From positions 5,104 to 69,103 of the forward strand of contig PEWR01000061.1 of NCBI GenBank assembly GCA_002779395.1: a DNA stretch of 64,000 bases, read 5' to 3'. The notes beneath the pieces were generated by a model that searched no databases, was not told where the DNA came from, and saw only the letters and a program-made list of their open reading frames with translations. Both the position numbers and the translations under genes were made by a program. Below are positions 1 to 17,726 of this stretch, piece by piece. Within the stretch, counting starts at the first letter, position 1. Every line of letters begins with the position of its first letter. Source of the DNA: Ignavibacteriales bacterium CG07_land_8_20_14_0_80_59_12. Its GTDB lineage: Bacteria; Bacteroidota; Ignavibacteria; 0-14-0-80-59-12.

Positions 1-1681
1 CAAGCGAAGAGAACCGCTCGGCGTTCGTGAGGAGGACTTCGCTCTTCCGGTTGTTTTCCTTCATCTTCGCCTGAGTTGTGTATGTCCCTTGGTGGTACTC
101 AAGGTAGAGCTCATCGTCCCACGTCGGAAGCGACGAAAGATCTTGCTTCTTGAGCCAGTCAATGTACTGCGTCGCGGTCCCGTAGTCGATCGATGGGAAG
201 ATGTCGAGCGTCTTCAGGTGCTCAATCCGGTCGATCATGGCGAGGGACGGGCCGCCGCCGTGATCGCCGACACCGAACAGGACGAGGAGCTTCGTGAAGC
301 CGGTGTTCGCGTCGAATTGCCGCATCCAGTCGACCAGACGGTACGGGTCTTCGATCTGGCTGACGTAATCGAACGGGAAGTAGCTAAGAATTGTCGACTT
401 CTCCGGTGCCTCCCACCAGAAGACACGGTACGGGAACACGTTCACGGCGTTCCATCCGATTTTCTGCGTGATGAACGCATCGATGCCCGCGTTCTTGTAG
501 AACTGCGGCATGTTCCAGTTGTATCCGAACGAATCGGGGTTCCAACCGATCTTCACGTCCTCCCCTAACTTGCTCCTGAAATACCGCTTTGCATAGAGGA
601 GGTGCCTCGCCCACGACTCACCGCTCGGCAGGTTGCAGTCCGGTTCGACCCACATCCCGCCAATGACCTCCCATCGACGGTCCTTCACATGCTGCTGGAT
701 TTGACGGAAGAGGTCTGGGTAAAGCCGCTCCATCCAGTCGTAGTACGCAGCCGAGCTTTGCGTGTACGTGAAGTCCGGCCGCGCATTGAACATGTTCATC
801 ACGGACGAGAAGGTGTTCTTGCACACTTCGATTGTTTCCTTCTCGCGCCACAGCCACGCCGCATCGATGTGTGCATTCGAATCGAAGAAAAGTGTGTACC
901 GTTTCGCGAACTCGCTGATCGGCTTCAGCTCCGATTTCACGCTCTTCAGCGAGACGGTGAAACCGTCGACGGAGCCGCGCGCAAGCGCATCGACGTCGAC
1001 ACGTGCGGCGAGCGTCTGGAGCAGCTCGCCGAGCCGCTTCTTCTCATCACGGCTCATCTTTGACTTGTCAGTCCCGGGATCAACCTTGTTGTTCGAGCTC
1101 GTCTGGTACGTGTCGAAACCGGTGAGCTTCTGCCCCACACGCATGCTGAGCGCAAAGTCCCTGACCGACTGCAGCAAGGGCGCCGTATTCTCTGTCTCGA
1201 TCTCAGCCCTTATGATTCTCAGCGGGCCGCTCGTGTTGATCGCCCGGATCGCGATAAGGAAGGTGTCGCCGGGCTTCCCGTTCTTCGTCAGCTCGAACTC
1301 GCCGTCCCACGGGAAATACCCACGGCTTTCTCCATTGATCCACATGTAGCCGTAGTCATCGACGGAGACAAGGAACTTCGCCGGTCCTGAGATGGGAACC
1401 CCGAGGATCGTCTGCGGCAGGACGATCGTCTTCCTGATCCAGCATGAATCAGGATAGATCCGCTCATTCAGCTTCAGGTTGTCCCATTTCGAATCGTCGA
1501 AGCCCGCCTGTTGTGGGTCCTTCCCATCGAGCTTCGCGATCTTCAGGTCCGGGCTGACCTTCCAGTCGTTGTAGGATGTGGAGACTAGTGAATCGAGCCG
1601 CGACACGAGCCTGTCGACGCTTGTCTGGGCGGAAAGCAGCGTCGTTCCCAGAACGCACGCCGCAAGGAGCCTGCCGAGCAT
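1..1681 (-). CDS. Alpha-mannosidase, glycoside hydrolase family 38, with signal peptide. The C-terminal part runs off the window start.
   Basis: The minus-strand frame is open from the ATG at 1679-1681 to position 1. It is absent from the ORF track because there is no stop inside the window. The N-terminus is a signal peptide, MLGRLLAACVLGTTLLSAQ. GH38 catalytic motifs are read directly: FFDSNAHIDAAWLW, GGMWVEPDCNLPSGES, WNPDSFGY, YLEYHQGTYTTQA. Confidence 0.85.
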   Translation of the reverse strand, partial: MLGRLLAACVLGTTLLSAQTSVDRLVSRLDSLVSTSYNDWKVSPDLKIAKLDGKDPQQAGFDDSKWDNLKLNERIYPDSCWIRKTIVLPQTILGVPISGPAKFLVSVDDYGYMWINGESRGYFPWDGEFELTKNGKPGDTFLIAIRAINTSGPLRIIRAEIETENTAPLLQSVRDFALSMRVGQKLTGFDTYQTSSNNKVDPGTDKSKMSRDEKKRLGELLQTLAARVDVDALARGSVDGFTVSLKSVKSELKPISEFAKRYTLFFDSNAHIDAAWLWREKETIEVCKNTFSSVMNMFNARPDFTYTQSSAAYYDWMERLYPDLFRQIQQHVKDRRWEVIGGMWVEPDCNLPSGESWARHLLYAKRYFRSKLGEDVKIGWNPDSFGYNWNMPQFYKNAGIDAFITQKIGWNAVNVFPYRVFWWEAPEKSTILSYFPFDYVSQIEDPYRLVDWMRQFDANTGFTKLLVLFGVGDHGGGPSLAMIDRIEHLKTLDIFPSIDYGTATQYIDWLKKQDLSSLPTWDDELYLEYHQGTYTTQAKMKENNRKSEVLLTNAERFSSL

Positions 1682-1721
1682 GTTCACGGTGCACCTCCCT
1701 TTGAGAGTGTTGATGGGAATC

Positions 1722-2678
1722 TCATCTCTTTCTGAACTGGTCGAGAAGGACTGCAAGGAGTATGACAACGCCGACCATCACCTGCTGTACATACGAGCCG
1801 ACATTCAGCAGGTTCAGGCCGTTGCGAAGCACGGCGATGAGCATCGCGCCGATGAACGTCCCGACGATGGATCCCCTTCCGCCCGAGAGGCTTGTCCCTC
1901 CCACAACGACGGCGGCGATGACATCGAGCTCATACATGATGCCGGCATTGGGTTGTCCGGAGTTCATCCGCGAGGCAAGAAGGATCCCGCTCACTGCCGA
2001 GAGGACGCCGCTGATTGTGTAGACACCCGTGAGCACGCGATGCGTCCTGATGCCTGCAAGCCGCGCCGCCTCAATGTTCCCGCCAACCGCAAACACGTAC
2101 CTCCCGAACCGAGTGTATTTCAGAACGACGTGTGCGGTCAGATACACGATGACCATGATGATCGTCGGTATCGGGACGCCGAGGAGGCGCCCGGTGCCGA
2201 GTACGCTGAATGCCTCCGGAAGCTCCCAGACCGGCCTCCCCTCTGTCACGACAAACGAGGCGCCGCGCCACACGGTCATGAGCGCAAGGGTGACAATAAA
2301 CGGCGCGATGTTGAACCGGGTGATGAAGAAGCCGGCAAACGAGCCGGAAAAGGCGCCGACCACCAACCCTGCAAAGATGGCAAGGGGAAGAGCGGCTGTC
2401 ACCGGGATCCCGGTCTTCAGCGTCCCTGTCGCGACGATCCCGGCGAATGCAACGACCGACCCGACGGAGAGGTCGATGCCCGCGGTAAGTATGACGAACG
2501 TCATGCCGGCGGCGATGATTGCCGTGATCGACGCCTGGAGGGTGACATTGAGGAGGTTCTCGGCAGTAAAGAAGTACGGTGAGAGCTGTGAGAAGGCGAG
2601 GAACTCGACGACGAGCACCGCACCAATACCCAGCTCGCTGAAGCGCCTCAGGGTGAAACTACCTGTTTCGTTCTTCAT
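1722..2678 (-). CDS. ABC sugar transporter permease (RbsC/XylH-like, about 10 TM helices)
   Basis: The track ORF is 1722..2912. The N-terminal 78 residues are non-hydrophobic junk, so the start is placed at the internal ATG at 2678 (MKNETGSF), which has a GGAGA RBS. The remainder is a typical branched/ribose-type permease (GIDLSVGSVVAF..., GGTSLSGGRGSIVGT). Confidence 0.85.
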   Translation of the reverse strand: MKNETGSFTLRRFSELGIGAVLVVEFLAFSQLSPYFFTAENLLNVTLQASITAIIAAGMTFVILTAGIDLSVGSVVAFAGIVATGTLKTGIPVTAALPLAIFAGLVVGAFSGSFAGFFITRFNIAPFIVTLALMTVWRGASFVVTEGRPVWELPEAFSVLGTGRLLGVPIPTIIMVIVYLTAHVVLKYTRFGRYVFAVGGNIEAARLAGIRTHRVLTGVYTISGVLSAVSGILLASRMNSGQPNAGIMYELDVIAAVVVGGTSLSGGRGSIVGTFIGAMLIAVLRNGLNLLNVGSYVQQVMVGVVILLAVLLDQFRKR

Positions 2679-2740
2679 TCTCCACGATGTCAGAAGTTGT
2701 AGACAACATGGACGGTGTCGGGTCCCCGGGTCAGGATTCT

Positions 2741-2932
2741 TCACTGGATGACAGAGCCGTCCTTGAGAAGCAATTTCGAATTCCTCTTCAACGACGTGTC
2801 GGTCGGCACCGCCCTCATCGTGTCGAGGGAGGTCGTTGGGCCCGGGACGGTCGCGGGTTTCTCCTCCATCGACAGCAACGATCCACCGCCAAACAGTGCT
2901 ATGATGGCACACATGAGCAAGATATGCTTCAT
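2741..2932 (-). CDS. Small hypothetical protein (63 aa) with a signal-peptide-like N-terminus, sitting between the ABC ATPase and the permease
   Basis: The ATG is 10 nt after the ATPase stop. The N-terminus MKHILLMCAIIALFGGGSLLS is hydrophobic and the rest is hydrophilic. It occupies an unusual 266-bp spacer inside the operon. No homology is recognised. Confidence 0.25.
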   Translation of the reverse strand: MKHILLMCAIIALFGGGSLLSMEEKPATVPGPTTSLDTMRAVPTDTSLKRNSKLLLKDGSVIQ

Positions 2933-2944
2933 CGACGCGCTCTC

Positions 2945-4462
2945 TCAGTTGTTCGGCATCTCACCCACCCGCCGGAAGCTCGTGGCGAGCGTCATGATCC
3001 GTTCCTGGGTCGCCTCGCTGCGAGTCAGTTCCCCGCTGACCCTCCCCTCGCACATCACGACGATCCGATCGGACATCCCGAGCAGCTCGAGGAGATCTGA
3101 TGAGATCATCACGATGCCTGTCCCTTCCGCCGCAAGCCTGTTGACCAATGTGTAGATCTCGTACTTCGCTCCGACGTCGATCCCGGCGGTCGGCTCATCG
3201 AAAACAAGGACCTTCGAGCGCGTGTGGAGCCAGCGGGCGAGCACCACCTTCTGCCGGTTTCCGCCGCTCAGGCTCTCAACCCTCACCTCCAGCGACGGAG
3301 CTTTGATGCGAAGCTGATCAACGAACGCCATCGCCGCACCCTTTTCCTTCGAACCGCTGATGAAGGGTCCGGTAAGAAGATCGCGGAGGTTCGAGAGTGT
3401 AATGTTCTCCCTTACGTTCATTTCCGCGATGAGGCCGTACCGGTTCCGGTCCTCGGTGAGGAGGCCAATCCCGAGGTCAATGGCTTCACGCGGCGAGCGG
3501 GGATTGATCTCGCAGCCGTCGAGGAAGATGCTGCCGCTTTCCTTGCGGTCAGCGCCAAAGATGAGACGGGCGACCTCGCTTCTGCCCGCGCCGACAAGTC
3601 CGGCAAGGCCGAGGATCTCTCCGCGGTGCAGCGAGAGTGTGATATCCTTCAACCTTCCACCCGTCACATGCTCCAGCCTCAGCGTTTCATCCCCGCGCTG
3701 GAGATGCACACCCGGGAACTCGTTTTCGAGCTCCCGCCCGACCATCCACCTGATGAGCTGCCGCCGGTCGACTTCCGCGACGGCTCGTGTCTCGACCATT
3801 TTCCCGTCGCGCAGCACGGTGACCCGGTCGCCGATCTCAAAAACCTCTTCGAGCCGGTGGGAGATATAGATGATGCCCACACCCTCGGCCTTCAAGCGGC
3901 GGATGACACCGAAGAGGTTCTGGATCTCATGTTCCGTGAGAGAGGTGGTTGGCTCGTCGAGGGCCAGGATGCGGACCTTCCGCGAGATCGCCTTCGCGAT
4001 CTCGACCGTTTGACGCTGCGCGACACTCAGGTCCCCCACGATGGCGGAGACGTCGATCTCCTCGCCGAGCTGCCGAAGCGCACCGCGCGCGGTCGACTCC
4101 ATTGCCTTCCGGTCGATGAACGGCAAACCGGGAATGGTCGGCTCGGACCCGAGGAGAATGTTCTCCGCGACCGTGAGCGCCGGGACAAGCTTGAAGTCCT
4201 GGTAGATCATCCCGATCCCGAGCGACTGTGATGCCGCTGGGGTCCCGATCTCCACCCTTCTTCCCTCGATGAGGATCTCGCCCGCGTTCTTCCCGATGGC
4301 GCCGGCGAGGATCTTCATGAGCGTCGACTTGCCCGCCCCGTTCTCCCCGACCAGGCAGTGGACCTCGCCCGCGGAGAGGCTGAAGTTCACATCGTCAAGC
4401 GCGAGGACACCCGGATACCGCTTGACAATACCCCGCATCCCGAGGAGCGGAGGCGTCGTCAC
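2945..4462 (-). CDS. ABC sugar transporter ATP-binding protein with duplicated ABC domains (RbsA/MglA-like)
   Basis: There are two Walker A sites (GENGAGKST; GLVGAGRSE) and two ABC signatures (LSVAQRQ; LSGGNRQKV) in 505 aa. It overlaps the upstream binding-protein gene by 4 nt. Confidence 0.9.
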   Translation of the reverse strand: MTTPPLLGMRGIVKRYPGVLALDDVNFSLSAGEVHCLVGENGAGKSTLMKILAGAIGKNAGEILIEGRRVEIGTPAASQSLGIGMIYQDFKLVPALTVAENILLGSEPTIPGLPFIDRKAMESTARGALRQLGEEIDVSAIVGDLSVAQRQTVEIAKAISRKVRILALDEPTTSLTEHEIQNLFGVIRRLKAEGVGIIYISHRLEEVFEIGDRVTVLRDGKMVETRAVAEVDRRQLIRWMVGRELENEFPGVHLQRGDETLRLEHVTGGRLKDITLSLHRGEILGLAGLVGAGRSEVARLIFGADRKESGSIFLDGCEINPRSPREAIDLGIGLLTEDRNRYGLIAEMNVRENITLSNLRDLLTGPFISGSKEKGAAMAFVDQLRIKAPSLEVRVESLSGGNRQKVVLARWLHTRSKVLVFDEPTAGIDVGAKYEIYTLVNRLAAEGTGIVMISSDLLELLGMSDRIVVMCEGRVSGELTRSEATQERIMTLATSFRRVGEMPNN

Positions 4463-5388
4463 CGCGCCGCCTGTTTCGAAAGGGCCTCCCGGTCGACGAT
4501 GCCGACGTCCACAGGCACGGCCCGCGGCACCTTCTCTCCGGCGAAGCAGGCCCTGATCTCATCGATCGTCGCGGAGCCAATCTTCTTCGGGTACTGGACG
4601 ACATCCGCCTTCAGTGGTGTCCCCCTCATGATCGCGTCCGCCGCGGGAGGCGTCGCATCGTACCCCACGATGACGACCTTCGACCGCTTGAACTGCTGAA
4701 CCGCATCGAGTGCGCCGAGTGCCGAATCATCATTGATCCCGAAAATCCCATTCAGGTCAGGGTGGGCCTGCAGCGCGTCGGCCGCAACCTCAAGCGATTT
4801 GTCGCGGACTCCCTGTCCGTTGACATCGGCAGCCACCTCTATCCCGGGGTACTTCGCAATAGCTTCGCGGAAGCCCTGCACACGGTCGAGGACTGATGTG
4901 ATCGCGGGCTGATTGATGATGCCGATCTTCCCCTTCCCGCCGAGCAACTTCGCGAGGTACTCCCCTGCGAGACGTCCACCCGCGACGTTATCCGATGCGA
5001 TGTGGCAGACAACATCTCCTTCCTCGGCAGCAATGTCCGCCGTAAAGACCGGGATGCCCGCTTTGTTCGCCTTCCTGATCCCCGTTCCGACTCCCTTCGA
5101 GTCCACCGGACAGACGAGGATCGCATCGACTTTTCTTGCCACGAAGTCTTCAATCTGCGCAGTCTGCTTTCCGAGATCGAAATCGGCCGATGTGATGATC
5201 AGATCGTAGTTGTGCTTCGCCGCTTCCTGCTTCAACCCATCCTCGAGGTCGCGGTAGAACATGTGGCCACGTGTGAGGAGTGTCACGCCGATCACTTTCG
5301 CCCCTTTTTTCTCTTCCTTCTTTCCACATGAGCCGAAGAGGAATGAAATCGCCAGCGCACAGCACAGGACCATCGCAATTCGTTTCAT
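4459..5388 (-). CDS. Periplasmic sugar-binding lipoprotein of the ABC transporter (RbsB-like)
   Basis: Lipoprotein signal MKRIAMVLCCALAISFLFGSCG. Type-I periplasmic-binding fold motifs are present (KVIGVTLL..., DAILVCPVDS, IVGYDATP). Confidence 0.9.
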   Translation of the reverse strand: MKRIAMVLCCALAISFLFGSCGKKEEKKGAKVIGVTLLTRGHMFYRDLEDGLKQEAAKHNYDLIITSADFDLGKQTAQIEDFVARKVDAILVCPVDSKGVGTGIRKANKAGIPVFTADIAAEEGDVVCHIASDNVAGGRLAGEYLAKLLGGKGKIGIINQPAITSVLDRVQGFREAIAKYPGIEVAADVNGQGVRDKSLEVAADALQAHPDLNGIFGINDDSALGALDAVQQFKRSKVVIVGYDATPPAADAIMRGTPLKADVVQYPKKIGSATIDEIRACFAGEKVPRAVPVDVGIVDREALSKQAAR

Positions 5389-5406
5389 ATCATGCTCCAG
5401 GCTTCG

Positions 5407-5649
5407 TTAGACCGTTTCGATGCCCGATTTCAGCGGAAGGAGAAGGGCGATGACAAAGGCAAGAATACCGAGCCCAAAGAAGACGTGGCCGATCCCGGCA
5501 TCGTGTTCAAGCAGGCCGAGAGTCCCAAGCATATAGGACCAGTCATGTGTTCCCTTCCCGAGGAGGGGTAGAACGTGCGCCCGTGCATCGGCGGCGTAGA
5601 CGCTGATGTTGATGAGGTTCTGACCGAGCCAGACGATGAAGACCTGCAT
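5407..5649 (-). CDS. Hypothetical small membrane protein (2 TM helices)
   Basis: The track ORF is 5407..5835, but only the C-terminal 80 aa from ATG 5649 (MQVFIVWLGQ... GLGILAFVIALLLPL) look protein-like. It lies 19 nt upstream of the binding-protein gene on the same strand. No homology is recognised. Confidence 0.3.
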   Translation of the reverse strand: MQVFIVWLGQNLINISVYAADARAHVLPLLGKGTHDWSYMLGTLGLLEHDAGIGHVFFGLGILAFVIALLLPLKSGIETV

Positions 5650-6212
5650 TCCGAACCGGTAGCCGTTCCTGAGGAAGTGAATCTTTTCCACATTTGCTGC
5701 GTAGTCAGTCAAGGGACTTGGCCAGCGTATGCCGCCGGATGGGATCAATGGCGAGCTCTCACGAGAGAACCGTTTGAGGGCCGCGGCGCTCGAACGCAGT
5801 GTTGAGAAATTACGCAGAAAACAGTAGAATAACAATCACTCCAGCCGCTGGATTCTCACGAGCTGTCGTGCCGCTTTTCTCGTCGTCTCCAGAGATCATC
5901 TTCATCCGCGTACACCAGCCCGTTCTCGTGTCGTCCGTGGTTCAATTCTTCTTCTCTGACACGCAGTTGCTTATATTGTGTGCATTGGCTCTCTTTGCCC
6001 CTCTCACACCGCACGAATATGGAGTCATGTGAATGGACAGGAATCGGATCTACCGCCACCTTGGCGAGTTCGAGCCCTTCAAGGACCTTGACGACCGGGA
6101 GCGCCGTCTCGTCGCCTGCAGCACGGAGGTGAAGCCAAGGAGTTTGAAGCCTTAAGCGGCCGCGATCGATTGTATACTCTGAGATGACACACTACAGGCG
6201 AGGCGAAAAACG

Positions 6213-6704
6213 ATGATGGACAAGCAACCGAATTCACGCATGTGCTTCATCTGCGGGCTGCAGAACCCGGTCGGTCTGAAGATGTCGATCTACAGCGACC
6301 CGGAAACGCGGCAGTCAACCTCCACTGTCACGATACCTGACCACTTCCGCGGATATCCCGGAGTAGTCCACGGCGGCATCATTGCGGCGATGCTCGATGA
6401 AGTCGCGGGGCGCGCGCTCCTCATCGACGGCGGCGACGACTATCTCATGGTCACCTTGAAGCTCGAAGTCAAGTACCGCCGTCCGACCCCCACGCTCACA
6501 CCGCTCACGATCGTCGGGAAGGTGACGCAGCCCGGCACCTCCCGGGCTGCCGTCCACGGTGAGATCCGCCTGCCCGACGGGACAGTCACTGCGGAGGCCG
6601 ATATCGTCCTCGCGCGAACGCCAGGGAGCGTCCGAGACCTGTGGGATGACGAGCGCGAGGACTGGAAGGTGTACCCGGACAACGAGGGGGCAGCCCCGAG
6701 TTGA
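6213..6704 (+). CDS. Hotdog-fold acyl-CoA thioesterase (PaaI/YbgC-like)
   Basis: CFICGxxNPxGL N-terminal motif and HGG catalytic region (YPGVVHGGIIAAMLDEVAG); 163 aa. Confidence 0.8.
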   Translation: MMDKQPNSRMCFICGLQNPVGLKMSIYSDPETRQSTSTVTIPDHFRGYPGVVHGGIIAAMLDEVAGRALLIDGGDDYLMVTLKLEVKYRRPTPTLTPLTIVGKVTQPGTSRAAVHGEIRLPDGTVTAEADIVLARTPGSVRDLWDDEREDWKVYPDNEGAAPS

Positions 6705-6787
6705 AGGGCTGCCGGCAGAACAACGAAATCCCGATGCCATTCGTCGTCCAGATGGAACACTTCATCATTTCTCCCTATTCTGATCTC

Positions 6788-6917
6788 CTAGAAGTCCGGC
6801 CGAAAACCCGCATGTCGACGGGAGTGTAGCATGAAGCTTGCGCCATTTCTTGAGCACACGTGATCTCAGAAGAAAAACAGGCGAATCCATGTTCAACCAG
6901 CGTGACGCTCAAGAGTC
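6788..6917 (+). mobile_element. Solo 130-bp left-end fragment of an IS5/IS1182-family element (copy 1). It includes the first 9 codons of the transposase, after which homology stops.
   Basis: It is about 97% identical (3 mismatches) to 9869..9998, where the same sequence continues into a transposase ORF. The shared string begins ctagaagtccggccgaaaacccgcatgtcgacggg and ends atgttcaacc[a/g]gcgtgacgctcaagagtc. Confidence 0.6.
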
Positions 6918-6939
6918 AAATAAGAGGTGAAAAGTCAAA

Positions 6940-6964
6940 CCCCCTCTCCATAGAGGAGAGGGGG
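6940..6964 (-). terminator. Probable intrinsic terminator for gene 6992..7570
   Basis: Perfect 10-bp GC-rich stem ccccctctcc/ggagaggggg with a 5-nt loop. On the minus strand it is followed by GTTTGACTTTTC. It lies 27 nt past the stop codon. Confidence 0.4.
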
Positions 6965-6991
6965 TTAAAGAACCTCTTCGGGGAGTGTGGT

Positions 6992-7570
6992 CTACCGCAC
7001 GTAGGCTAACTTCTTCACATTGGTGGATGTTCTGCTACTCACCTCAGATTTCGCCACCATACGATAGAAGTAAATCCCGCTGGCAACAGCCTCCGGCTTC
7101 CAATCAACTTTGTGAAAACCAGGTGGCTCAATCCCTTCAACGAGCGTTGCAACTTCTTCTCCAAGCACATTGTAGAGCTTGATGCTCACCTGAGATTCCT
7201 CAGGAAGTGCAAATTCAATCATAGTGCTCGGATTAAATGGATTCGGGTAGTTCTGCTCAAGCCGATACTCAGTAGGAAGCATCTCGCCCGGCTGCTCTGC
7301 TACACCTGTCAACAGATAGCGCTGCACGTGCCAGAAGCCGGCGATCTGCTTATTGGATGCATTGCTCGTTGTGCCGATGAATGGCTGTCCGAGCGTGCCA
7401 ACAAGCTTGTTGTCCCTGGAACTGAGTGAACCTCCTCCACTTCCAAAGACGCTCCGCGGGATGGCATACTGCCCTGATGCACTCTGGCAGAAGAGAAACA
7501 AGAAAACCACAATTCCTGCCGAAAAAATTGTCCCGCTAAAAGAAACGGGATTTTCAAGAAGATGTCTCAT
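6992..7570 (-). CDS. Small secreted protein with a T9SS C-terminal sorting domain (192 aa); cargo function unknown
   Basis: Signal peptide MRHLLENPVSFSGTIFSAGIVVFLFLFCQSASGQ. The last ~85 aa form a type-A Por secretion tail (NYPNPFNPSTMIEFALPEESQVSIKLYNVLGEEVATLV...GIYFYRMVA). GC is about 50% versus about 62% for the window. Confidence 0.8.
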   Translation of the reverse strand: MRHLLENPVSFSGTIFSAGIVVFLFLFCQSASGQYAIPRSVFGSGGGSLSSRDNKLVGTLGQPFIGTTSNASNKQIAGFWHVQRYLLTGVAEQPGEMLPTEYRLEQNYPNPFNPSTMIEFALPEESQVSIKLYNVLGEEVATLVEGIEPPGFHKVDWKPEAVASGIYFYRMVAKSEVSSRTSTNVKKLAYVR

Positions 7571-7583
7571 TTTTTTACCCTCC

Positions 7584-9617
7584 TCACTTTGCCTCTGGCT
7601 TTGCTTGCATCTTCTCTTGCTCAGCTTTCATCTTCTCTTGCTCAGCTTTCATCTTCTCTTGCTCAGCCCTCATCTGCTCCTCCATCTCGTGGTTCTTCTC
7701 ATAGTCTATACCCAACGTCTCTGATACGCCGTATTCCTTTGGATGGATGTACTTCCCTCGCTCCGCACCGGTTTTCTCCACCTCAACTTGAGCGGGATGC
7801 GCTTTAACATACGGGTCGTTACGGATGCCTGTGACCTGCCAGGAGACTCTCACGTTCGGTTTGTCAGTCTTGATTGAGAAGCGGTTGTTGTGAATTTCTT
7901 CACTCACGATTGCCTGAGCAAACTGTCCGATGACCGTTAATTGGTAGCGAAAGTCGCGGTTGAGGGCTTCGAAGTAGTCGGGTAGGGTGACCGTTGCCTC
8001 ACCATTAGCATCAGTAACGACGTTACCATTGTAGATATTCAGCACCTCATCCGACTCCACACAGAAATGGGCCAGGTACTTATTTGCCGGGTCGAGCGGA
8101 TGATCAATTTTGAATGACTTGTAGCCACCGACGTAGAGATGTCCTACGATCACCACATCGCCTTCGAAGTGGCCAGCGGGGGAGCTGCCGCTGCTCCAGC
8201 CATACACGGCGATGCCGGTGGTACTGTAGCCATATACGCCGTAGGGGTTGCCGGAGCCCCACACGCCGCAGTCACTCATGCCAAGGTATCCGAAGTTGCC
8301 GCTACTGCTGTAGCCATACACGCCATAGTCCGCGCCGTCGCCATACACGCCGTAGGTGCCGTGTCCATACACGCCGTAGCTTTGGCCGCCAAGGTATCCA
8401 TAGCGACCGCTCCCGTCGTTGCAGCCATACACGCCATACTCCCCGGCCTTGCCATACACGCCAGTGCTCCTGAAGCTCGTACCTCTGCCATAGACGCCGT
8501 AGCCGCTGTTGCTTTCGCCATACACGCCGTTGCCGCTGTTGTTGTAGCCATGCACGCCGTCGTTGCTGGTGCTTTCGCCATAGACGCCGTAGCCGCTGCC
8601 GCTGTAGCCATAGACGCCGTAGCCGCTGTTGCTGTAGCCAAACACGCCATCGTTGCTGTTGCTTTCGCCATACACGCCGTAGCCGCTGCCGCTGTAGCCA
8701 AACACGCCTTCGCCGCTGCTGCCAAGCCATCCGTAGTTGCCGCTGGTGCTGTGTATGCCAGACACGCCGGAGACGTAACCGCCAAGGTATCCGTAGCTGT
8801 CGCTAGTGCTGTTGTAGCCTTTCACGCCGGCGCCGCTGCCGGAATTTGTAGCAAAGATAATTGAATTTGGAGAAGCAGAGCTGCCGCTGAGTGAAAGAGG
8901 AACCCTCACGTTCAACGTCACATCACCAGTCGTTCCTCCACCGGATAAGCCTGTACCGGCAGTGACCCCAGTGATGTCGCCGCCAGCTCCGCCTGGGGTT
9001 GTGGCAATGGTCAAGGTGTTACCCAACGGGGTGATGCTTACGTTGGACCCTGCCTGCAGCGTGACGTTGTCGTGCAAGCTGTTCAGGCTCTTGACCACCT
9101 CTCCAGAGGCAATCTTGGTGCTGTCCACAGCACCATCGGCAATCTTCGCTGAGGTAACTGCATTGTTGTTAATACTTGGATTTGGATATCTCCCTGTTAA
9201 ATCACCGCCAGCTGTAATACCATTGATGCTGTCTGTGTTTGCAGCACGGAAGCTGTAGCCAGAGCCTGTCAACTGCATTCTCGGCGTAAGTTCCGTACCA
9301 GCTCCAACTGTTACTTCAAGCCAGTACGGCTTGTTAAAGGGCAGGTTTAATGTATCTACGCTCCCTAAGTTCACGCTGAATATCCCTTTGCTGACTGCAA
9401 CTGATTGTACCTCTTGCCATAGCGGCGTACCGCCTGTGGTAACGTCGTAGAGCTTGAAGGTGAGGCTGTAGTTACCATCAGGTACAGCCGTGCCGCTGGC
9501 ATCTGTCAAGATCCCCTGGTAGCTGATCGTCTTGGGAATTTGTGCAAGGCTCAATGGTGCAAGAAGAAGCACCATCAGTGCGATGGACAAGAATGTCCAA
9601 CGTAGAGTTGTGTTCAT
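7584..9617 (-). CDS. Gly/Tyr-rich repeat fibre-like secreted protein (677 aa). It has a signal peptide, an N-terminal beta domain, GYGVYG decapeptide repeats, a conserved C-terminal domain and a heptad coiled-coil tail.
   Basis: AAGGAGG RBS. Signal peptide MNTTLRWTFLSIALMVLLLAPLSLAQ. N-terminal domain ISYQGILTDASGTAVPDGNYSLTFKLYD. Central region has ~15 copies of the GYGVYG core across residues ~260-470, of which 8 are regular 30-bp units. C-terminal domain KSFKIDHPLDPANKYLAHFCVESDEVLNIYNGNVVTDANGEATVTLPDYFEALNRDFRYQLTVIG. Tail MRAEQEKMKAEQEKMKAEQEKMQAKPEAK. There is no T9SS C-terminal domain. Confidence 0.85.
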   Translation of the reverse strand: MNTTLRWTFLSIALMVLLLAPLSLAQIPKTISYQGILTDASGTAVPDGNYSLTFKLYDVTTGGTPLWQEVQSVAVSKGIFSVNLGSVDTLNLPFNKPYWLEVTVGAGTELTPRMQLTGSGYSFRAANTDSINGITAGGDLTGRYPNPSINNNAVTSAKIADGAVDSTKIASGEVVKSLNSLHDNVTLQAGSNVSITPLGNTLTIATTPGGAGGDITGVTAGTGLSGGGTTGDVTLNVRVPLSLSGSSASPNSIIFATNSGSGAGVKGYNSTSDSYGYLGGYVSGVSGIHSTSGNYGWLGSSGEGVFGYSGSGYGVYGESNSNDGVFGYSNSGYGVYGYSGSGYGVYGESTSNDGVHGYNNSGNGVYGESNSGYGVYGRGTSFRSTGVYGKAGEYGVYGCNDGSGRYGYLGGQSYGVYGHGTYGVYGDGADYGVYGYSSSGNFGYLGMSDCGVWGSGNPYGVYGYSTTGIAVYGWSSGSSPAGHFEGDVVIVGHLYVGGYKSFKIDHPLDPANKYLAHFCVESDEVLNIYNGNVVTDANGEATVTLPDYFEALNRDFRYQLTVIGQFAQAIVSEEIHNNRFSIKTDKPNVRVSWQVTGIRNDPYVKAHPAQVEVEKTGAERGKYIHPKEYGVSETLGIDYEKNHEMEEQMRAEQEKMKAEQEKMKAEQEKMQAKPEAK
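7603..7686. repeat. 21-bp tandem repeat, about 3.5 copies, encoding AEQEKMK heptads at the C-terminus of the fibre protein
   Basis: gcttgcatcttctcttgctca / gctttcatcttctcttgctca (twice) / a degenerate 4th unit. The period of 21 bp equals 7 aa. Confidence 0.8.
8482..8751. repeat. 30-bp imperfect tandem repeat, 8 regular units from 8512 with a degenerate copy upstream, encoding (S/N)SGYGVYGES decapeptides inside the fibre gene
   Basis: Units such as GCCATAGACGCCGTAGCCGCTGTTGCTTTC recur with 2-6 substitutions each. Antisense ORFs in the track (8139..8864, 8276..8785, 8302..8730) are artefacts of this repeat. Confidence 0.8.
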
Positions 9618-9868
9618 GGTACTACCTCCTTGTTTTGTTTGTTATGATGGTTTGTTTCCTAACGTGCAAAAGACGTTGGGCTGTTGACTGTCCCGCTGAA
9701 AAGAACGGGATTTTTCAATCTGTGCACATCTATGTTTACCCCTTTCCTTGTAGGAGAGGGTAGGGTGAGGTCATGAAATGCCTGGCTCATTGCTGCAACT
9801 GTTTCCTTCTGCATCCGCTTATTTACTGTTATATATAGTAGGAATTTGCTTCAGCTGCAAAAGATAAT

Positions 9869-10430
9869 CTAGAAGTCCGGCCGAAAACCCGCATGTCGAC
9901 GGGAGTGTGGCATGAAGCTTGCGCCATTTCTTGAGCACACGTGATCTCGGAAGAAAAACAGGCGAATCCATGTTCAACCGGCGTGACGCTCAAGAGTCTC
10001 TTCTCAATTCTGACAGTCAGTTTCTCAAAACTGTGGGTCGAGACACGTTCTATGGATTTCTCTCTGAGCATCGGCACGGGATCTTCCGTGACGACGACTT
10101 CGGATTTCTCTACTGCCGGAACAACGGCCGCCCGTCGGTCCCGCCGAGCATCTTAGCTCTCTCACTTCTCCTGCAGATCTACAACAAGGTCTCGGACGAC
10201 GAGGCGGCGCGCCGTGCCCACTTCGATCTCCAGTGGCAGGTCGCGCTCGGGATCCCCGTCGGTTCGCAAACGTTCGTCAAGAGCACGTTGCAGATGTTCC
10301 CTTCGCAACTCATTCTCCATGAGACAGCGCGCGACATTTTCATGAAGTCGATTGGCAACCACCTAACTGTCCGGAAGGCTGTGACACGGTACAACGCCGA
10401 GAATGCTCTCCGCCTCACCGATCAGGCTGT
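9869..10430 (+). mobile_element. Truncated IS5/IS1182-family element (copy 2): left end plus the N-terminal ~150 codons of the transposase. The 3' boundary is approximate.
   Basis: The first 130 bp duplicate 6788..6917. The encoded N-terminus contains the InsH-type DUF772 motif FLYCRNNGRPSVPPSILALSLLLQIYNKVSDDEAARRAHFDLQWQVALGI. There is no DDE catalytic region. The ORF runs into the oppositely oriented gene at 10435. Confidence 0.6.
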
Positions 10431-10506
10431 TCTGTCATTTCACCAAGGTCATCTTCTGAATCTTCGAGAACGACCCTCCCGTTATCTGATAGAAGTAGAG
10501 ACCTGA
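9970..10506 (+). pseudogene. Transposase N-terminal fragment (IS5/IS1182 family), truncated
   Basis: The true start is most likely MFNRRDAQESLL at 9970; the track ORF 9919..10506 starts at an upstream in-frame codon. Only ~150-180 aa of the expected ~450 are present, and the tail is probably read-through into antisense of the neighbouring gene. Confidence 0.55.
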
Positions 10507-10740
10507 GGAAAACCCTGAGGCGTCGAACAGAACCGCATGCATCCCGGGCGAGAGCGTCTCATCCACCAGCTTGGTGATTTCCCGGCCCATCGAGTCGAAA
10601 ACCCTCAGCACGACGTGTTCTGACTGTGGCAATTCAAAGCTTATCATGGTGTTTGGATTGAAGGGATTTGGAGAGAGGTGAAGCTTGCCCCTGTTGCGCC
10701 CGAATCGGATGTACGGCAATGGCGGCAAAACAGAAGGCAA
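10435..10740 (-). pseudogene. Orphan T9SS C-terminal sorting domain, a remnant of a decayed secreted-protein gene
   Basis: The track ORF begins at a TTG. Only the last ~80 aa are domain-like (SPNPFNPNTMISFELPQSEHVVLRVFDSMGREITKLVDETLSPGMHAVLFDASGFSSGLYFYQI). An ATG-initiated signal-peptide ORF (MRILSGIAVAFCFAAIAV...) lies in another frame at 10723-10765. The upstream PQQ gene is in the third frame. Confidence 0.5.
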
Positions 10741-10787
10741 CCGCGATACCGGACAAGATTCTCATTGTTTCCCCCTTTCTTGTTTGT

Positions 10788-12041
10788 TCATTTGATCGCG
10801 TATACGTGGTGACCGGGATTGTTGGAGCTCACATATATTCTCCCGTTACCGCTGATTGCCGGCGGAGAATCGATATTGGGGATCCAACCGCCCAGACCTC
10901 CCGCGAGATACATCTGAAACTTCATCGTGCCATCTGGATTCAGAGCAATGAAGTTGGTTGAATCGGCTGGATTCCCGTATGGTCTGCGAGAGTGAGTGAG
11001 TCCAAAGTAGATTGTCCCATCCACGTCAATGGCTGGTATGCAGTCAGAAAGTGCAGGAAGTGGGTATTTCCACTTCAGTCTGCCTGCGTAGTCGATCGCA
11101 TACAAATCCAAACACGTGATAACATAGATCGTGCCGTCCCATCCGATGATGGGCCCGATGCCCAACCCTGTCCAGGGCACTCCAGGGAGTCGCCACCGCA
11201 GCACGCCCGATTGGTCGAACGAGCATAATTCATCCGCTCCGGCACAGAAGTAGACATTGCCGTCGTTGTCAACTGCAGGCGCCGATGGTACTTTTCTGCA
11301 AGTCAACCTCAAATGACCGCTCGTGTCCACAGCATAAAGCGCGTGGCCACCAGGGACATAGAGTAATGTGCCATCCGGGCTCATCGCCGGTGAGTATTGA
11401 ACGGAGTCACTGTCGGGCTTCCACTTCCAGTGTAGTGTCCCATCCCTTCGGATAGCGTATAGTGAACCTACCGCAAGATAGACTGTTCCCCCATCTTTCG
11501 AGATTACCGGCGAACTGAAGCTCGCATTCCCTACCACAGGGAATCTCCATTTCAGAAAACCACCACGGTCATAAGCAAACAGGTACCGTTGCCAGTTGTC
11601 ATAACCGTCCACGTGCACATTCCCATCAGCAGCGACCAACGCCGAGCCGTCTCCTGCAGTGGATTTGCTCCACTTTAACTGACCATCTGCTCCTATGGCG
11701 AGGAAATCCGGAGAAAAAGAACTGACGCGCACGTAGATTGTCCCGTTTTCATCAATCACCGGGGATGAGAATACCCCACCGCCAGCGAAAAACGTCCACT
11801 CGACTTTCCCCTCTTGCGGACCGCGGTACGGGCTCCTTCCGGTATGCTGCGCATCATGGAGGAACATTGGCCAGGGGGAATTGGCTAACCCCGGCCAGGA
11901 GATCTCATGTTGTTGCTTGGTTAGAAAATGCGCGGTGTCCGGCGGCGCAACTAGTTGGCTGTTCTTCCTACATGACGCGGAGAAGAGAGCGAAGGACAGG
12001 ATGAGAACTGATCCCACAAATGCTGCAAGTGCGCTTCGCAT
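10788..12041 (-). CDS. PQQ-like beta-propeller repeat lipoprotein (BamB-like fold)
   Basis: AGGAGG RBS. Lipoprotein signal LILSFALFSASC. Repeated xDGTIY(V/F) blades recur throughout (DENGTIYV, DGNVHV, DGGTVYLAV, DGTLLYV, DGNVYF, DGTIYV, NGRIYV). GC is about 52%. Confidence 0.8.
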   Translation of the reverse strand: MRSALAAFVGSVLILSFALFSASCRKNSQLVAPPDTAHFLTKQQHEISWPGLANSPWPMFLHDAQHTGRSPYRGPQEGKVEWTFFAGGGVFSSPVIDENGTIYVRVSSFSPDFLAIGADGQLKWSKSTAGDGSALVAADGNVHVDGYDNWQRYLFAYDRGGFLKWRFPVVGNASFSSPVISKDGGTVYLAVGSLYAIRRDGTLHWKWKPDSDSVQYSPAMSPDGTLLYVPGGHALYAVDTSGHLRLTCRKVPSAPAVDNDGNVYFCAGADELCSFDQSGVLRWRLPGVPWTGLGIGPIIGWDGTIYVITCLDLYAIDYAGRLKWKYPLPALSDCIPAIDVDGTIYFGLTHSRRPYGNPADSTNFIALNPDGTMKFQMYLAGGLGGWIPNIDSPPAISGNGRIYVSSNNPGHHVYAIK

Positions 12042-12501
12042 CTTTAACCTCCTGTATATCGTGACACTCTATTATCGGAGAGATGAGTATGCAAGCAGAA
12101 GCGTTCGCACCTCTCTCCCGAAAACGTCGAAGACCTTCAAGACGACCGGCTCCTTCACCGGGATCTTGAACTCGATCAGGGTCGATGCGCCCCGGAAGCT
12201 GGATCGGAGGATTCGGAGTGAGGTAGACGTAGTTGTCGTTCGGTTCATTCCGGTAAGCGTACCGGTATTCGAGCCGACCGCACGTTCGCCCGCGGAACGC
12301 GTTCATGTCGGAGATCGAGAACCTTGTCGCCAGGGTGTCGATGTTCAATCCACTCATGCTCCACTCCGCGGGCGAGGAGAAGTCCTGCATGAGATAGCTT
12401 CCAGCCGGTGCGACAACCTTCACGGTGGCGGTGTCCGATACGCCTCCGTAGCGGCACACAACGATTGCCTCGCCGCTCCGTTGCCCGCCGTGACGGGGAC
12501 C

Positions 12502-13344
12502 TCAGAACTTCAGGACCTCACGAATCCGCTTGAGAACCGGCTGGATTTCACGGTCCCAGAATTTCCAGTCGTGCCTTCCCGGCACCTCGCGATATTCGTA
12601 CCACGCCCCTGCGGCCCGGAGCGAATCCGCAAGTGCGCGGTTTCGCAGAAGAATGCTCTCCAGTCCATCCTGGATGCCGACGGCCATGTAAATGTACGGA
12701 AGTGTCCCGGGCTCTGCCTCCTTGTACACGGTAAACAGATCGTCGCCCGGCGGGAACGTACTTCGTTTCTCTCCGTACGCCTTCTCAAGGCTCGGCAGAA
12801 CCCACGAAAACGAGGGCTTCTTCTTGTACTCCTCGACGTCTCCAGGCATCGCGAGGACGCCGCTGAGACTCCCGGCAAAGCGGAACTTGTTTGGGTGCTT
12901 CATCGCGACGAGAAGTGAACCGTACCCTCCCATTGAGAGTCCAGCGATTGCCTGTCGAGCTGTGTCGACTGAGTATTTCTGCTGAATGAAGCGCAGAAGA
13001 TCGATCGCGATGTAGTCCTCATACCGCCCCCGGGGATCGGTCACAGAATTAACATACCACGAGTCGTCCGCATCCGGCATCACGACAATGAGAGGCAAGT
13101 CGGCGACATACTTCGAGATGGAAGTCCGCGTCGTCCAGTCAACAAAGCTCCCGGTGAGCCCATGAAGCAGGTAGAGCGAAGGGTACCGCTTTGAGGCGTC
13201 ATAACCCGAGGGGAGCAGGACTATCAGCTTCTTGACGCTGTCGAGGCTCGGGACGAAGAAGCTGTCGGTTACGGCGATCGTCTCTGCGAGCGCCGCGGCG
13301 GAGTTAAGGAGCAATACCGCGACAAGAGTGGCCCGTCTCTTCAT
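12502..13344 (-). CDS. Secreted esterase (Esterase D/enterochelin-esterase-like alpha/beta hydrolase)
   Basis: The start is placed at the internal ATG 13344 (MKRRATLVAVLLLNSAAALA signal peptide). The track ORF extends to 13491. GLSMGG nucleophile elbow and the LYLLHGLTGS motif are present. Confidence 0.85.
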   Translation of the reverse strand: MKRRATLVAVLLLNSAAALAETIAVTDSFFVPSLDSVKKLIVLLPSGYDASKRYPSLYLLHGLTGSFVDWTTRTSISKYVADLPLIVVMPDADDSWYVNSVTDPRGRYEDYIAIDLLRFIQQKYSVDTARQAIAGLSMGGYGSLLVAMKHPNKFRFAGSLSGVLAMPGDVEEYKKKPSFSWVLPSLEKAYGEKRSTFPPGDDLFTVYKEAEPGTLPYIYMAVGIQDGLESILLRNRALADSLRAAGAWYEYREVPGRHDWKFWDREIQPVLKRIREVLKF

Positions 13345-13536
13345 GTTGCATCCATCTTCATGTGAGCATTGTCCACGTGAACGCTGGTTCGAGAGGGATG
13401 TTGTAGCAGTGGGCCGTGTCCCAGAAACCGGGGTACTCGAGCCAGGCAGGAAATGGCGGCGTCCAGCTGAGCCGATTGCCGCCACCGACAAACCACTTCT
13501 CCTCGCGTGAGAGAAACCGAACGGGGTCTATTCGTC

Positions 13537-16152
13537 TCATTTGAACACGACCTGAACTTGATGCTTCACGAATTCCCCGCCCCGACCACCTGGAATCTGC
13601 ACGTGGATGACGTCGCCGTCCAGTGCCGCCCCGGTGACTGAAGCAACCCGGGAGGCGTTCCTGACAGGGAGAGAATAGGCCTCTCCGCTCACTCCCTCAA
13701 CCAGAAGCCTCAGCGTGTCCCCCTCCAGGTTCTGTGAGACGACTTTCAACGAGTAGTTCGTCGCGCCGGGACTCGTCTGGATTGCCGGTGCGACGATTTC
13801 AGGGACCGCATTCCACTCAAGCGCGGCGACCGACCGGGCAGAGACAGAGAGACGAACCGTTGGATGGACGTCCTGCGAGTTCAGCGAAAGCTCCGCATCA
13901 GCCGGCGTGCCATCGAGGACCGCCTTCACTTCTCGAACACCGAGGGGAAGTGCGGGCGAGAATTGAAGCTCCACCACGCCCGGGCCCTCCTTCCTGACCC
14001 GAAGCTCCATGCTCCCGTTCGTGCGTTTCAGAATGAGATCGACGGTCATCAGGCCGACACGAACGTTTCTCACCGCGATGCTGTCCCAGTCCGGGGAAAG
14101 GTGGGGGGCAAACAGAATCTTCCCTCTCACCGCGTCGACCTCCAATCCAAGGAGCCCCCGCACCAGCGGGACAACATATCCGGTAGTGGAGAACCCCTGG
14201 TGGTGGTACGCCTCACCAAGCTTCTGGTTAAGTGTCCCCGAAAAGACCTCGGGAACGCAGCCGATTCCGTTCGTGAACGCCTGCCGAACCACGGAACAAA
14301 GCGTCTGATATCCGGAGAGGCCGAAGTGATGCCGGAATTGCGCCGTCCCGAGGAACGTCGATAGAAAAGGCCACACGGCCCCATAGTTGTAGTTCGTGGG
14401 CTCGAAGTACGCGGATGACGGCGGGAGGGAGCGTGTCCCCCAGTCCGTGCAGAGGTCAGCGCCGCTGTAGGCTTCGAGACTCTGCAGAGTGCGGTTCTCG
14501 TCAAGCAGGCTGAACATCATGGCGGTGGCGGGCCAAGGTGTTTTCTCCTTTACCTGCTCGTTTTCCTCCGTTGCACCGTAGCTGTAGAAGCCGAGGTCGT
14601 TCATCCAGAACTTCTGTTCAAGCGCCTTCTGCGCGCGGATGAGTTGCGGCTCGGCGGCTTTCCGCATTTCGTGATCGCCGACCACATCCGCCATCTCAGT
14701 CATTTCTCTTATTGCCTGCGTCCACACCGCGCACGTGTACATATCGGCATAGATGCCGACAAGCTTCCCAAACTCCAGCGCGCCGAGCCCGGCACCTTTC
14801 AGGTCCATCAAGCCGTCGCCGTCGCTGTCCTTGGACAGGCACCATTGGTACGCCTGCTTGAGCGACCGCCAGCTCTTCTTGATGAAATCCGCGTCGCCGC
14901 TTGAGCGGAGGTAGTCCCCCATCGCGACGATGTACCACGGCGTCGTGTCGGCATGGTTGTAGCCGTAGTGGTAGTCGTTCCACCAGTCGACGAGTCCGTC
15001 GCTCTGCGACAGCTCATGCGCCATCTTTCCAACGTCCCTGTTCACAGTGCCCGGTCGCTTCCGAATCGGGAAATCTTCCTGCCGCTGCCACTTCTGCGCA
15101 AAGGCAAGGCCCTCCCGCACTGCAGCAAAGGCACCGTAGCTGTCGAACGCAAGCGTGTTGATAAACGCATCCCCACCGAAGAACCATGCAAACCCCGGAC
15201 GCGCGCTCCCACCCGAGAGTCCGAAGCCGGCGACGAGGCCCGTCCCGAGTGCCGGATTCCTCACGAGAAGATTGTCGAGCGCAATCTTCCCCCATTCGAA
15301 AGCCCTATCAATCTCCTTCACGGGAGTCGAGATCTGCACCGTTGACTCGCGGAGTGCCCGGTAATATCCTTGATTCCGCTTGTACAGTCCTTCCGCATCT
15401 GTCCACAGGTGCTTATAAATCGACTTCACGGAGTCCATCTTCATCCCTTGGCCCCCTGCAATCACGAGTGGGATGAAATGGCCTGCTGATTCGCCCGCAC
15501 TCAGGCTAATCTTGAACTGGAGCGGCGCGTCGGCGAACATATGCGCGGGAGGCGCCGCCATCGGCTCGCTCGCCGGTGACCCGCAGAGGAAGATCGCCCG
15601 CCACCTCCCCTCTGAGATAACGTATGCGTTCGCGACATCGTCCCAGTAGCTGAACTGCCCTCCGATTCCTGCGGGCCACATCGGCTCCATGACGGGAAGG
15701 AAGCTTGCCACGATGGTGAGCGGAGCAGTCGTGTGGACATCGAGGAGAAGGACCGCCCCCGGCTCGTCCAGCGGGACGATGGCGATCTCTCGCACCGTGA
15801 ACGACTCATAGGAGTAGGTAATAACCGTCGCTTCGGGCGCCACGGAGACCGTGCGGACAACGTCGCGCGCAAGGATCGGCTGCGTCGACGTGCCGAGAAG
15901 GAATGAGAGTTCGAAATTCCGCAGCGGCTTCCAGGGCCACACCCACATCTCGAACGAGCCGCTCTCGTAGCCCATGAGGCCAGCCCTGCGGCCGATCTTG
16001 TCGAAGTACTGGAGCGGTTGCGCGAGCCGCGTCACCTCGATGTCGCTTAGCTCAAGCCTGAAGGCAGGGACGAGGACTGTGTCCGGCAGCGCCTCACGCG
16101 CGAACCCGATCGTGACACTGCATATGAGAAGGAGAATCCAACGGCGCATCAT
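13537..16152 (-). CDS. Secreted glycoside hydrolase, six-hairpin (alpha/alpha)6 clan GH-G-like (amylo-alpha-1,6-glucosidase/GH63-type catalytic domain) with extra beta domains
   Basis: The start is placed at ATGATG 16152 (MMRRWILLLICSVTIGFA signal peptide). The track ORF extends to 16365. Motifs read directly: PGFAWFFGGDAFINTL (the WF-GRD-type motif) and WWNDYHYGYNHADTTPWYIVAMGDYL. Length 871 aa. Confidence 0.7.
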   Translation of the reverse strand: MMRRWILLLICSVTIGFAREALPDTVLVPAFRLELSDIEVTRLAQPLQYFDKIGRRAGLMGYESGSFEMWVWPWKPLRNFELSFLLGTSTQPILARDVVRTVSVAPEATVITYSYESFTVREIAIVPLDEPGAVLLLDVHTTAPLTIVASFLPVMEPMWPAGIGGQFSYWDDVANAYVISEGRWRAIFLCGSPASEPMAAPPAHMFADAPLQFKISLSAGESAGHFIPLVIAGGQGMKMDSVKSIYKHLWTDAEGLYKRNQGYYRALRESTVQISTPVKEIDRAFEWGKIALDNLLVRNPALGTGLVAGFGLSGGSARPGFAWFFGGDAFINTLAFDSYGAFAAVREGLAFAQKWQRQEDFPIRKRPGTVNRDVGKMAHELSQSDGLVDWWNDYHYGYNHADTTPWYIVAMGDYLRSSGDADFIKKSWRSLKQAYQWCLSKDSDGDGLMDLKGAGLGALEFGKLVGIYADMYTCAVWTQAIREMTEMADVVGDHEMRKAAEPQLIRAQKALEQKFWMNDLGFYSYGATEENEQVKEKTPWPATAMMFSLLDENRTLQSLEAYSGADLCTDWGTRSLPPSSAYFEPTNYNYGAVWPFLSTFLGTAQFRHHFGLSGYQTLCSVVRQAFTNGIGCVPEVFSGTLNQKLGEAYHHQGFSTTGYVVPLVRGLLGLEVDAVRGKILFAPHLSPDWDSIAVRNVRVGLMTVDLILKRTNGSMELRVRKEGPGVVELQFSPALPLGVREVKAVLDGTPADAELSLNSQDVHPTVRLSVSARSVAALEWNAVPEIVAPAIQTSPGATNYSLKVVSQNLEGDTLRLLVEGVSGEAYSLPVRNASRVASVTGAALDGDVIHVQIPGGRGGEFVKHQVQVVFK

Positions 16153-16377
16153 TCTTCGTTTTCCTTTCGGCCTATGAGTATCATCCGTGCTGCCGGCGGC
16201 TGCACATTTTCCCTCAACCCCGGGAGTCACTGCAGGTTGCGCCGTGGCGGGCCGAAGCAATCGGGTCGCGAACTGACGCGGAGCGGCACCATTGGAGAGG
16301 TCCTCACGCTGGGAGCCCCTCACATCCTCCGCCCGCAGGCGGGCCGCGTGACTCGCAATGACCAACTTTGACGGGAA

Positions 16378-17493: not shown

Positions 17494-17697
17494 CTTGTTT
17501 TCGATTGGACTCGTTCCTTCGTCTGCTGTTCGGCGTCGCTCTCCTGTAGTTTACTGATGTGCAGGGACATCTTCAAGACCCACCCTGCTGACGACGCGGC
17601 GCAGTGTGTGCTGGACCACTTCACTCCCGGCGGGCCGCACTTTGCGGCTCACACAGTGCAGCAGGCACGGAACGACAGCCGCGTGTTTCCGATTTGA

Positions 17698-17726
17698 TTG
17701 TTTTTTTTCTTCGCATTTGCTATACT
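17698..17726 (+). promoter_or_regulatory. Sigma70-type promoter TTGTTT-N17-TATACT for smpB, probably giving a leaderless mRNA
   Basis: The -10 box ends 10 nt before the smpB ATG at 17737. There is no Shine-Dalgarno sequence. Confidence 0.4.

Follow-up and report, generated by a model that had tools for sequence, protein, structure and literature searches.

The DNA analysed here is a single stretch of 64,000 nucleotides (the window) from Ignavibacteriales bacterium CG07_land_8_20_14_0_80_59_12, whose naming scheme we take to be that of a Crystal Geyser groundwater MAG. It contains a 130 bp sequence that is present twice, on either side of two genes for secreted proteins. The first-pass annotation of this DNA described the sequence as the left end of an insertion sequence (IS), solitary at one site and continuing into a truncated transposase gene at the other. 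It also proposed that IS-mediated deletion or recombination had shaped the enclosed cassette and that the repeats could excise or duplicate it. Are the two copies truly the ends of one IS, and of which family? Or are they an assembly artefact, the edges of a duplication, a MITE or a regulatory module? If they are IS ends, do they still act upon the genes between them?

Pairwise alignment of copy 1 (6788-6917) with copy 2 (9869-9998) yields 130 columns without gaps, 127 of them identical (97.7%). The three mismatches are at 6828/9909, 6868/9949 and 6899/9980, with A in copy 1 and G in copy 2 each time, and the longest identical blocks are 40, 39 and 30 bp. Similarity breaks off sharply at both edges, and the upstream flanks of the two copies are unrelated. 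The coordinates, the count of three mismatches at about 97% identity and the abrupt end of homology in copy 1 had all been given correctly in the first-pass annotation, and careful alignment, which it had suggested might reveal many mismatches, leaves only these three. The copies have the same direction and a spacing of 3,081 bp, with 2,951 bp of DNA between them. Exactly two occurrences of a 40-mer from the repeat were counted in the window, where 100 shuffles led us to expect none, and a repeat search of the whole 64 kb found no third copy of the 130 bp. In both copies an ATG, at 6889 and 9970, begins the reading MFN(Q/R)RDAQES.

Short-read assemblers break at true repeats, and a few contigs do end within this one (L088 at 6827; Logan contigs begin at 9919), which is what speaks for an artefact of assembly. 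Three proteins, namely the thioesterase (6213-6704), the small T9SS protein (6992-7570) and the product of the 178-aa DUF772 ORF (9970-10506), were looked up by exact match. This retrieved about 20 different contigs, which represent different samples and three assembly sources: ENA (MEGAHIT), JGI and Logan. Their collinear stretches are 99.3-100% identical to the window, or 98.3-98.8% in two contigs that have a mosaic fibre gene. As far as each contig reaches, the gene order is thioesterase, 130-bp copy, small T9SS gene, fibre gene, truncated IS and sorting-domain remnant. The look-up reports differing neighbour genes separately, and no alternative neighbourhood for the queried genes was present among the contigs read. 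Those of sufficient length hold both repeat copies, copy 1 always with copy 1 flanks and copy 2 always with copy 2 flanks. No contig has lost the differences between copies at repeat positions 41 and 112, and this includes the contigs of the mosaic-fibre strains. Copy 1 has an extra T-to-C change at position 52 in many contigs and G, the copy-2 base, at position 81 in one ENA contig. Because the copy-specific differences, each in its unique flanks, are retained in these contigs, many of which read through both copies, the repeat is genuine. The independent assemblies refute an artefact, the concern that the first-pass annotation had itself raised, and we give that reading virtually no credence. 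The arrangement is fixed in the sampled population.

One-ended fragments of an IS1182-family element

Three diverged relatives of the repeat (L002, L003 and L006; 72-75% nucleotide identity) lie in unrelated contexts and have the same terminus. The similarity of L002 and L003 to the window starts at an identical CTAGA with unrelated sequence upstream, and the same start with unrelated upstream flanks is seen at 38 metagenome loci. In L006 the terminus at the matching place is CTAGAGGTGCGGCCGAAAACCC, and CTAGA...GGCCGAAAACCC is common to L006 and the window. Since relatives carry this CTAGA terminus in unrelated contexts, 6788 and 9869 are a real IS terminus and not the arbitrary edge of a duplication.

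L006, the closest of the relatives that are of full length, is a complete IS of 1,863 bp (L006:3899-5761, CAVVIT010000007.1, Ignavibacteriota MAG MFD01476.bin.1.164). Its left end is paired with an imperfect inverted partner ending CCGGGCCTCTAG, and its single ORF of 586 aa scores 285.6 bits against NF033551, the NCBIfam model of the IS1182 transposase (488 positions, cut-off 270 bits). Over the part that is retained in the window, L006 is 73% identical in nucleotides and 70% in protein, and the distance from the end of the element to the start codon is equal in L006 and the window fragments. L006 is, however, too diverged to be the parent element, and is present in another genome and another context.

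The ORF of copy 2 matches Pfam DUF772 (PF05598). Its transposase fragment aligns with profile positions 5-123 of the 488 in NF033551 (E = 3.4e-17, 62.5 bits), which is below the cut-off of 270 as the fragment is truncated. In a tblastn search of the window, the L006 transposase matches over residues 1-129 only, at 70% identity; database homologues align to residues 1 to about 128 of the 178-aa ORF only, and the blastn similarity of copy 2 stops at 10349-10350. No similarity to the DDE region is present anywhere in the 64 kb, either by blastn or by tblastn with the 586-aa L006 transposase, and the only Pfam match is PF05598. The repeat is the true left terminus of an IS1182-family insertion sequence, and the fragment descends from a member of that family without being a complete member itself. 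The terminus shared with relatives bears out the earlier view that the segment is the left end of an IS and includes the first 9-10 transposase codons, as PF05598 and tblastn do for copy 2 running into a truncated DUF772 N-terminus that lacks a DDE domain. That view had put the truncation at about 150 aa of about 450; the truncation stands, but the sizes are 129 aa of about 586 (L006; the NCBIfam profile has 488 positions).

The features of the locus are listed in Table 1. Copy 1 consists of the 22-nt terminal repeat, a leader and transposase codons 1-9 with 2 further nucleotides, and its ORF stops after 13 codons. Copy 2 extends much further into the transposase, and the read-through tail of its ORF overlaps the 3' end of a converging gene for a sorting-domain protein. 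Next to both breaks, that of copy 1 and that of copy 2, there is a converging gene that encodes a T9SS sorting domain, and the break falls 74-78 nt past its stop codon.

Table 1. Features of the repeat pair and of the DNA around it (positions in the window).
Feature	Position	Strand	Basis or content
Solo left-end fragment, copy 1, IS positions 1-130	6788..6917	+	alignment; L002/L003 homology start
Left terminal inverted repeat, copy 1, 22 nt: CTAGAAGTCCGGCCGAAAACCC	6788..6809	+	same 22-mer in 38 JGI loci
Bracketed 2,951-bp segment, apparently one transcription unit	6918..9868	-	upstream region, fibre gene, small T9SS gene, terminator
Terminator-like hairpin of fibre/T9SS pair	6938..6966	-	12-pair stem, then T-rich tail
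192-aa protein, signal peptide and T9SS C-terminal sorting domain	6992..7570	-	PF18962, TIGR04183
Fibre-like secreted protein, 677 aa, Gly/Tyr-rich 30-nt periodic repeats	7584..9617	-	
21-bp tandem repeat in fibre gene (C-terminal)	7593-7676		
Upstream region of fibre gene	9618-9868	-	
Truncated IS, copy 2, positions 1-488 of ~1.86 kb	9869..10356	+	NF033551, PF05598, tblastn, blastn
Terminal repeat, copy 2	9869-9890	+	
Transposase codons 1-129	9970-10356	+	intact: no stop, no frameshift
178-aa ORF: 129 transposase residues and 49-residue read-through tail	9970..10506	+	alignment
Decayed gene beside copy 2 break point	10435..10765	-	ORFs in different frames

Both fragments are one-ended, the left repeat being present twice and the right absent. 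No right-repeat-like sequence adjoins either fragment when up to 7 mismatches are allowed, and the right-repeat core TTTTCGGCCGG is absent from the 64 kb window. As there is no right inverted repeat and no transposase, neither fragment can transpose. With the IS1182 family (an ISfinder family; NF033551) they share the DUF772 transposase N-terminus, and their relatives also fit it in size (1.84-2.03 kb), in having one long ORF and in their imperfect terminal inverted repeats; unlike a family member, the window holds only positions 1-130 and 1-488, without the catalytic domain or the right end. Solitary IS ends and remnants in bacterial chromosomes are likewise one-ended, non-coding or with a truncated ORF, immobile and fixed. 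Nothing essential sets the present fragments apart from these, other than that two remnants of the same end here form direct repeats around an intact gene pair. The lineage is unnamed and there is no evidence that it is active at present. For annotation, this means that the 178-aa 'DUF772 protein' is what is left of a dead transposase, and that 6788-6917 is debris that does not code for a protein. The pair documents the decay of an IS1182-family element in a Crystal Geyser-type Ignavibacteriales population, which by itself matters little.

The enclosed gene pair and its variation among strains

The two partial copies, in the same orientation, bracket 2,951 bp with the small T9SS gene and the fibre gene, in agreement with the earlier estimate of about 2.95 kb. 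The 192-aa protein scores 29.4 bits against PF18962 (cut-off 27) and 32 bits against TIGR04183 (cut-off 23). The fibre family is very large, with 4,492 matches at E <= 1e-10, and a comparison of the fibre protein with PDB sequences gave no match. Its N-terminus weakly resembles the model for the Bdellovibrio 'mosaic adhesive trimer' fibres (28.8 bits, cut-off 60), a family described in PMC10769870. The terminator-like hairpin ends 21 bp from the copy 1 break. In addition, the window contains two copies of an imperfect hairpin motif (about 30 nt; plus-strand sequence GTCCCGCT.AAAGAACGGGATTTTCAA), at 7530-7557 and 9690-9718. Read on the minus strand, one motif copy immediately precedes the fibre gene and the other falls where the small T9SS gene starts; one of the two scores as terminator-like.

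On the far side of copy 2 there are a beta-propeller gene and the decayed gene, which is made up of a signal-peptide ORF (10634-10765) and a T9SS sorting-domain ORF (10435-10740) in different frames, with nothing between them. Do the two fragments mark the ends of a tandem or segmental duplication? The upstream flanks are unrelated, and the sorting domains of the genes beside the fragments (10435-10765 and 6992-7570) share only 38% amino acid identity, so that a recent segmental duplication is rejected.

Much of 6750-12000 has a G+C content of 0.47-0.55, while the values to the left of 6750 and to the right of 12250 are about 0.58-0.65; at the edges of the cassette (6918-9868) it is 0.47-0.51. 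Since the shift is near 6750, a compositionally distinct island has its left edge at the left IS end (6788), and this lower-G+C island of secreted-protein genes is thus marked off on the left by the IS remnant. From 6788 to about 12460, with its G+C below that of the flanks, the DNA has the look of a gene graveyard; a separate remnant of 58 aa, at 12072-12248 on the minus strand, looks by eye like a T9SS sorting domain. The gene adjoining copy 1 is a PaaI-type thioesterase (6213-6704), with a G+C of about 0.65, the highest in the neighbourhood. Outside the population's own cluster its closest homologues are about 70% identical, and the named ones are from Chloroflexi-type MAGs (Anaerolineae, Thermoflexales). 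Neither a close outgroup nor an empty site was found through the thioesterase homologues; the one long contig looked up had an F420-type neighbourhood without synteny. Integration next to a tRNA was also considered and is rejected, as positions 1-20000 contain no tRNA or integration-site signature.

The fibre gene and the small T9SS gene form a conserved two-gene module, which is present as tandem arrays in other Ignavibacteria (L152:3001-7613, L153:8001-13191). Because the modules of L152 and L153 are without this IS end, the association with the IS is specific to the present lineage and does not amount to a general cassette system.

Strains of the population differ in patches. Within the fibre gene, mosaic segments at 7877-8117 and 9103-9601 are 5-12% diverged, strain L093 has the central fibre repeat region replaced or shortened, and the 21-bp C-terminal tandem repeat differs by one 7-aa unit, which gives proteins of 670 or 677 aa. 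There are further small divergent patches in the small T9SS gene and the propeller gene. The rest, including both repeat copies, is near-identical. We therefore reject any special conservation of the 130 bp: DNA outside the patches is equally near-identical, and copy 1 is itself polymorphic. As variation is confined to patches in these three genes, the repeats are neither unusually conserved nor breakpoints of exchange. They are of use as a pointer to a hypervariable fibre/T9SS module.

Are the repeats an active recombination device, by which the fibre cassette is currently excised, lost or amplified in the population? The direct homology of 130 bp at 97.7% identity suffices for RecA-type recombination, and the single contig with the copy-2 base at position 81 of copy 1 could reflect gene conversion. 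Yet the flanks are in the parental combination wherever a contig spans a copy. Among the roughly 20 contigs, which are consensus assemblies and as such blind to rare recombinants, we found no deletion junction (copy 1 flank, repeat, copy 2 continuation) and no reciprocal junction of excision, a circle or a duplication. The observed exchanges have their breakpoints within the fibre gene (about 8117 and 9103), not at the repeats. Moreover, loss of the cassette would be irreversible and would not work as a switch. We consider such a device very improbable. In principle, host homologous recombination acting on 130 bp of imperfect direct homology could rarely loop out 3,081 bp, a product that appears in none of the assemblies. 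The proposal that the repeats excise or duplicate the cassette thus finds no junction to support it, and IS-mediated deletion or recombination as the force that shaped the cassette is not demonstrated either, the fragments having neither a right end nor a transposase.

Origin of the two fragments

The best explanation of the locus, to which we assign a probability of about 0.8, is that both segments are inert remnants of one IS1182-family lineage. Most likely they were left by two once-complete copies that flanked the gene pair and were each later truncated. Two complete copies in the same orientation would once have stood on either side of the fibre and small T9SS genes. They may have come in by separate insertions, or together in a composite transposon with the lower-G+C gene pair as its cargo. 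Ordinary deletion would then have removed from each copy all that lay to the right of an internal point, leaving positions 1-130 in copy 1 and positions 1-488 in copy 2. The order and type of these events are inferred.

The similarity to composite transposons is that two IS sequences of the same lineage, in direct orientation, bracket a compositionally distinct transcription unit. In contrast to such transposons, both window copies are truncated, an outer right end and a transposase are absent, and there is no intact copy in the window or in the collections searched; the structure would be a fossil at best. No ancestor with two complete copies was observed. The first-pass annotation had proposed looking for an intact parent, and no element more than 90% identical to the window fragment was found in the JGI metagenomes. 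GTDB species representatives gave 0 matches to a degenerate left-end pattern, which was too strict, a 1-nt indel having caused it to miss even L006. That pattern does match the window, which places the window's genome outside the GTDB collection. In a protein-based scan the best match had only 70% amino acid identity. Against two once-complete copies there is also the lack of a close outgroup genome with an intermediate or an empty site, and two deletions that both removed the right end, both just past the 3' end of a neighbouring gene, are a mild coincidence.

Could a single event have produced the pair? One IS copy may have been resident at the locus, and the cassette may have come in beside another copy of the same IS. 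One homologous crossover within the IS, together with an illegitimate join of IS position 130 to the terminator side of the cassette, would duplicate the first 130 bp, a case of homology-facilitated illegitimate recombination. This requires fewer events, since a single one accounts for the unbroken transcription unit as well as for the sudden break at position 130, and it is in keeping with cassette edges that are lower in G+C than the flanks and with neighbouring DNA that is not duplicated. The 2.3% difference between the copies would then be the divergence of donor and recipient. However, no donor context is known, the fibre/T9SS modules of L152 and L153 in other Ignavibacteria are without such an IS end, and no intermediate genome was found. 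We regard this capture, the main alternative, as rather unlikely. At repeat position 41 the outgroup bases favour G, and at position 112 they favour A, which suggests that each copy carries its own derived change. That pattern fits both histories, whether two insertions or a composite on the one hand or a single capture on the other.

A wider version of the capture appears improbable to us: IS-end fragments may serve as portable homology by which modules of a fibre gene and its T9SS partner are captured or swapped between genomes, copy 1 being the scar of such a capture. If so, it would give Ignavibacteria a recombination route to diversify surface fibres that goes beyond intragenic mosaicism.

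Relatives and MITEs of the same IS group

When JGI metagenomes were scanned for the 22-nt end CTAGARRTCCGGCCGAAAACCC, 38 loci (L114-L151) were identified. Two are from this organism, both of them copy 2, and one is L002. The remaining loci share only their first 22-32 nt with the window. Most of these have an inverted partner 127-425 bp downstream, commonly at sizes of 130 and 167-169 bp, and are for that reason MITEs. At three loci the partner is 1,836-2,028 bp away with an IS1182-type transposase between, as elements of 1.84-2.03 kb. The 22-mer, which has R at positions 6-7 in the JGI loci, ends full-length ISs and MITEs alike. Flanks differ at every locus, and no duplication is evident outside the CTAG...CTAG termini; the terminal CTAG may itself be the duplicated target in these relatives. 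As a by-product, an unnamed IS1182 subgroup from which many MITEs derive now has a defined 22-nt terminus.

This IS group thus does spawn MITEs of 127-425 bp, some of them of 130 bp, and copy 1 has the 22-nt terminal repeat in common with them. Is copy 1 a MITE, or has it been selected as a regulatory module derived from the IS, either a promoter or a small RNA? It presumably retains the transposase promoter region along with the start codon and would point antisense into the cassette. The true MITEs of the group have both inverted repeats, whereas copy 1 has only the left one, with no right repeat at or near 6917, and its identity as a MITE is rejected on this ground. A known or structured RNA is rejected too: copy 1 folds no better than shuffled sequence (z = 0.25), and Rfam gave no credible match (best E = 0.15, below the gathering score). 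The absence of extra conservation in a copy that is polymorphic also speaks against a selected module. A sigma-70 promoter scan, uninformative for this phylum, found nothing. A MITE or regulatory role for copy 1 is in our opinion extremely doubtful, and we retain the interpretation of both copies as decayed IS ends.

One JGI contig has a second element close to copy 2. In L111 (126-1812) a different IS1182-family IS, of 1,687 bp with a 476-aa transposase, abuts window position 9831. This places it within the fibre gene's upstream region, at 38 bp to the left of copy 2. The other flank of L111 (125 bp) and its IS have no match in the window or at any other locus. Either the contig represents a rearranged variant, or it is a chimera joined at a multicopy IS. 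Among the metagenome loci, L123 contains two of the MITEs described above, in inverted orientation and 7.4 kb apart.
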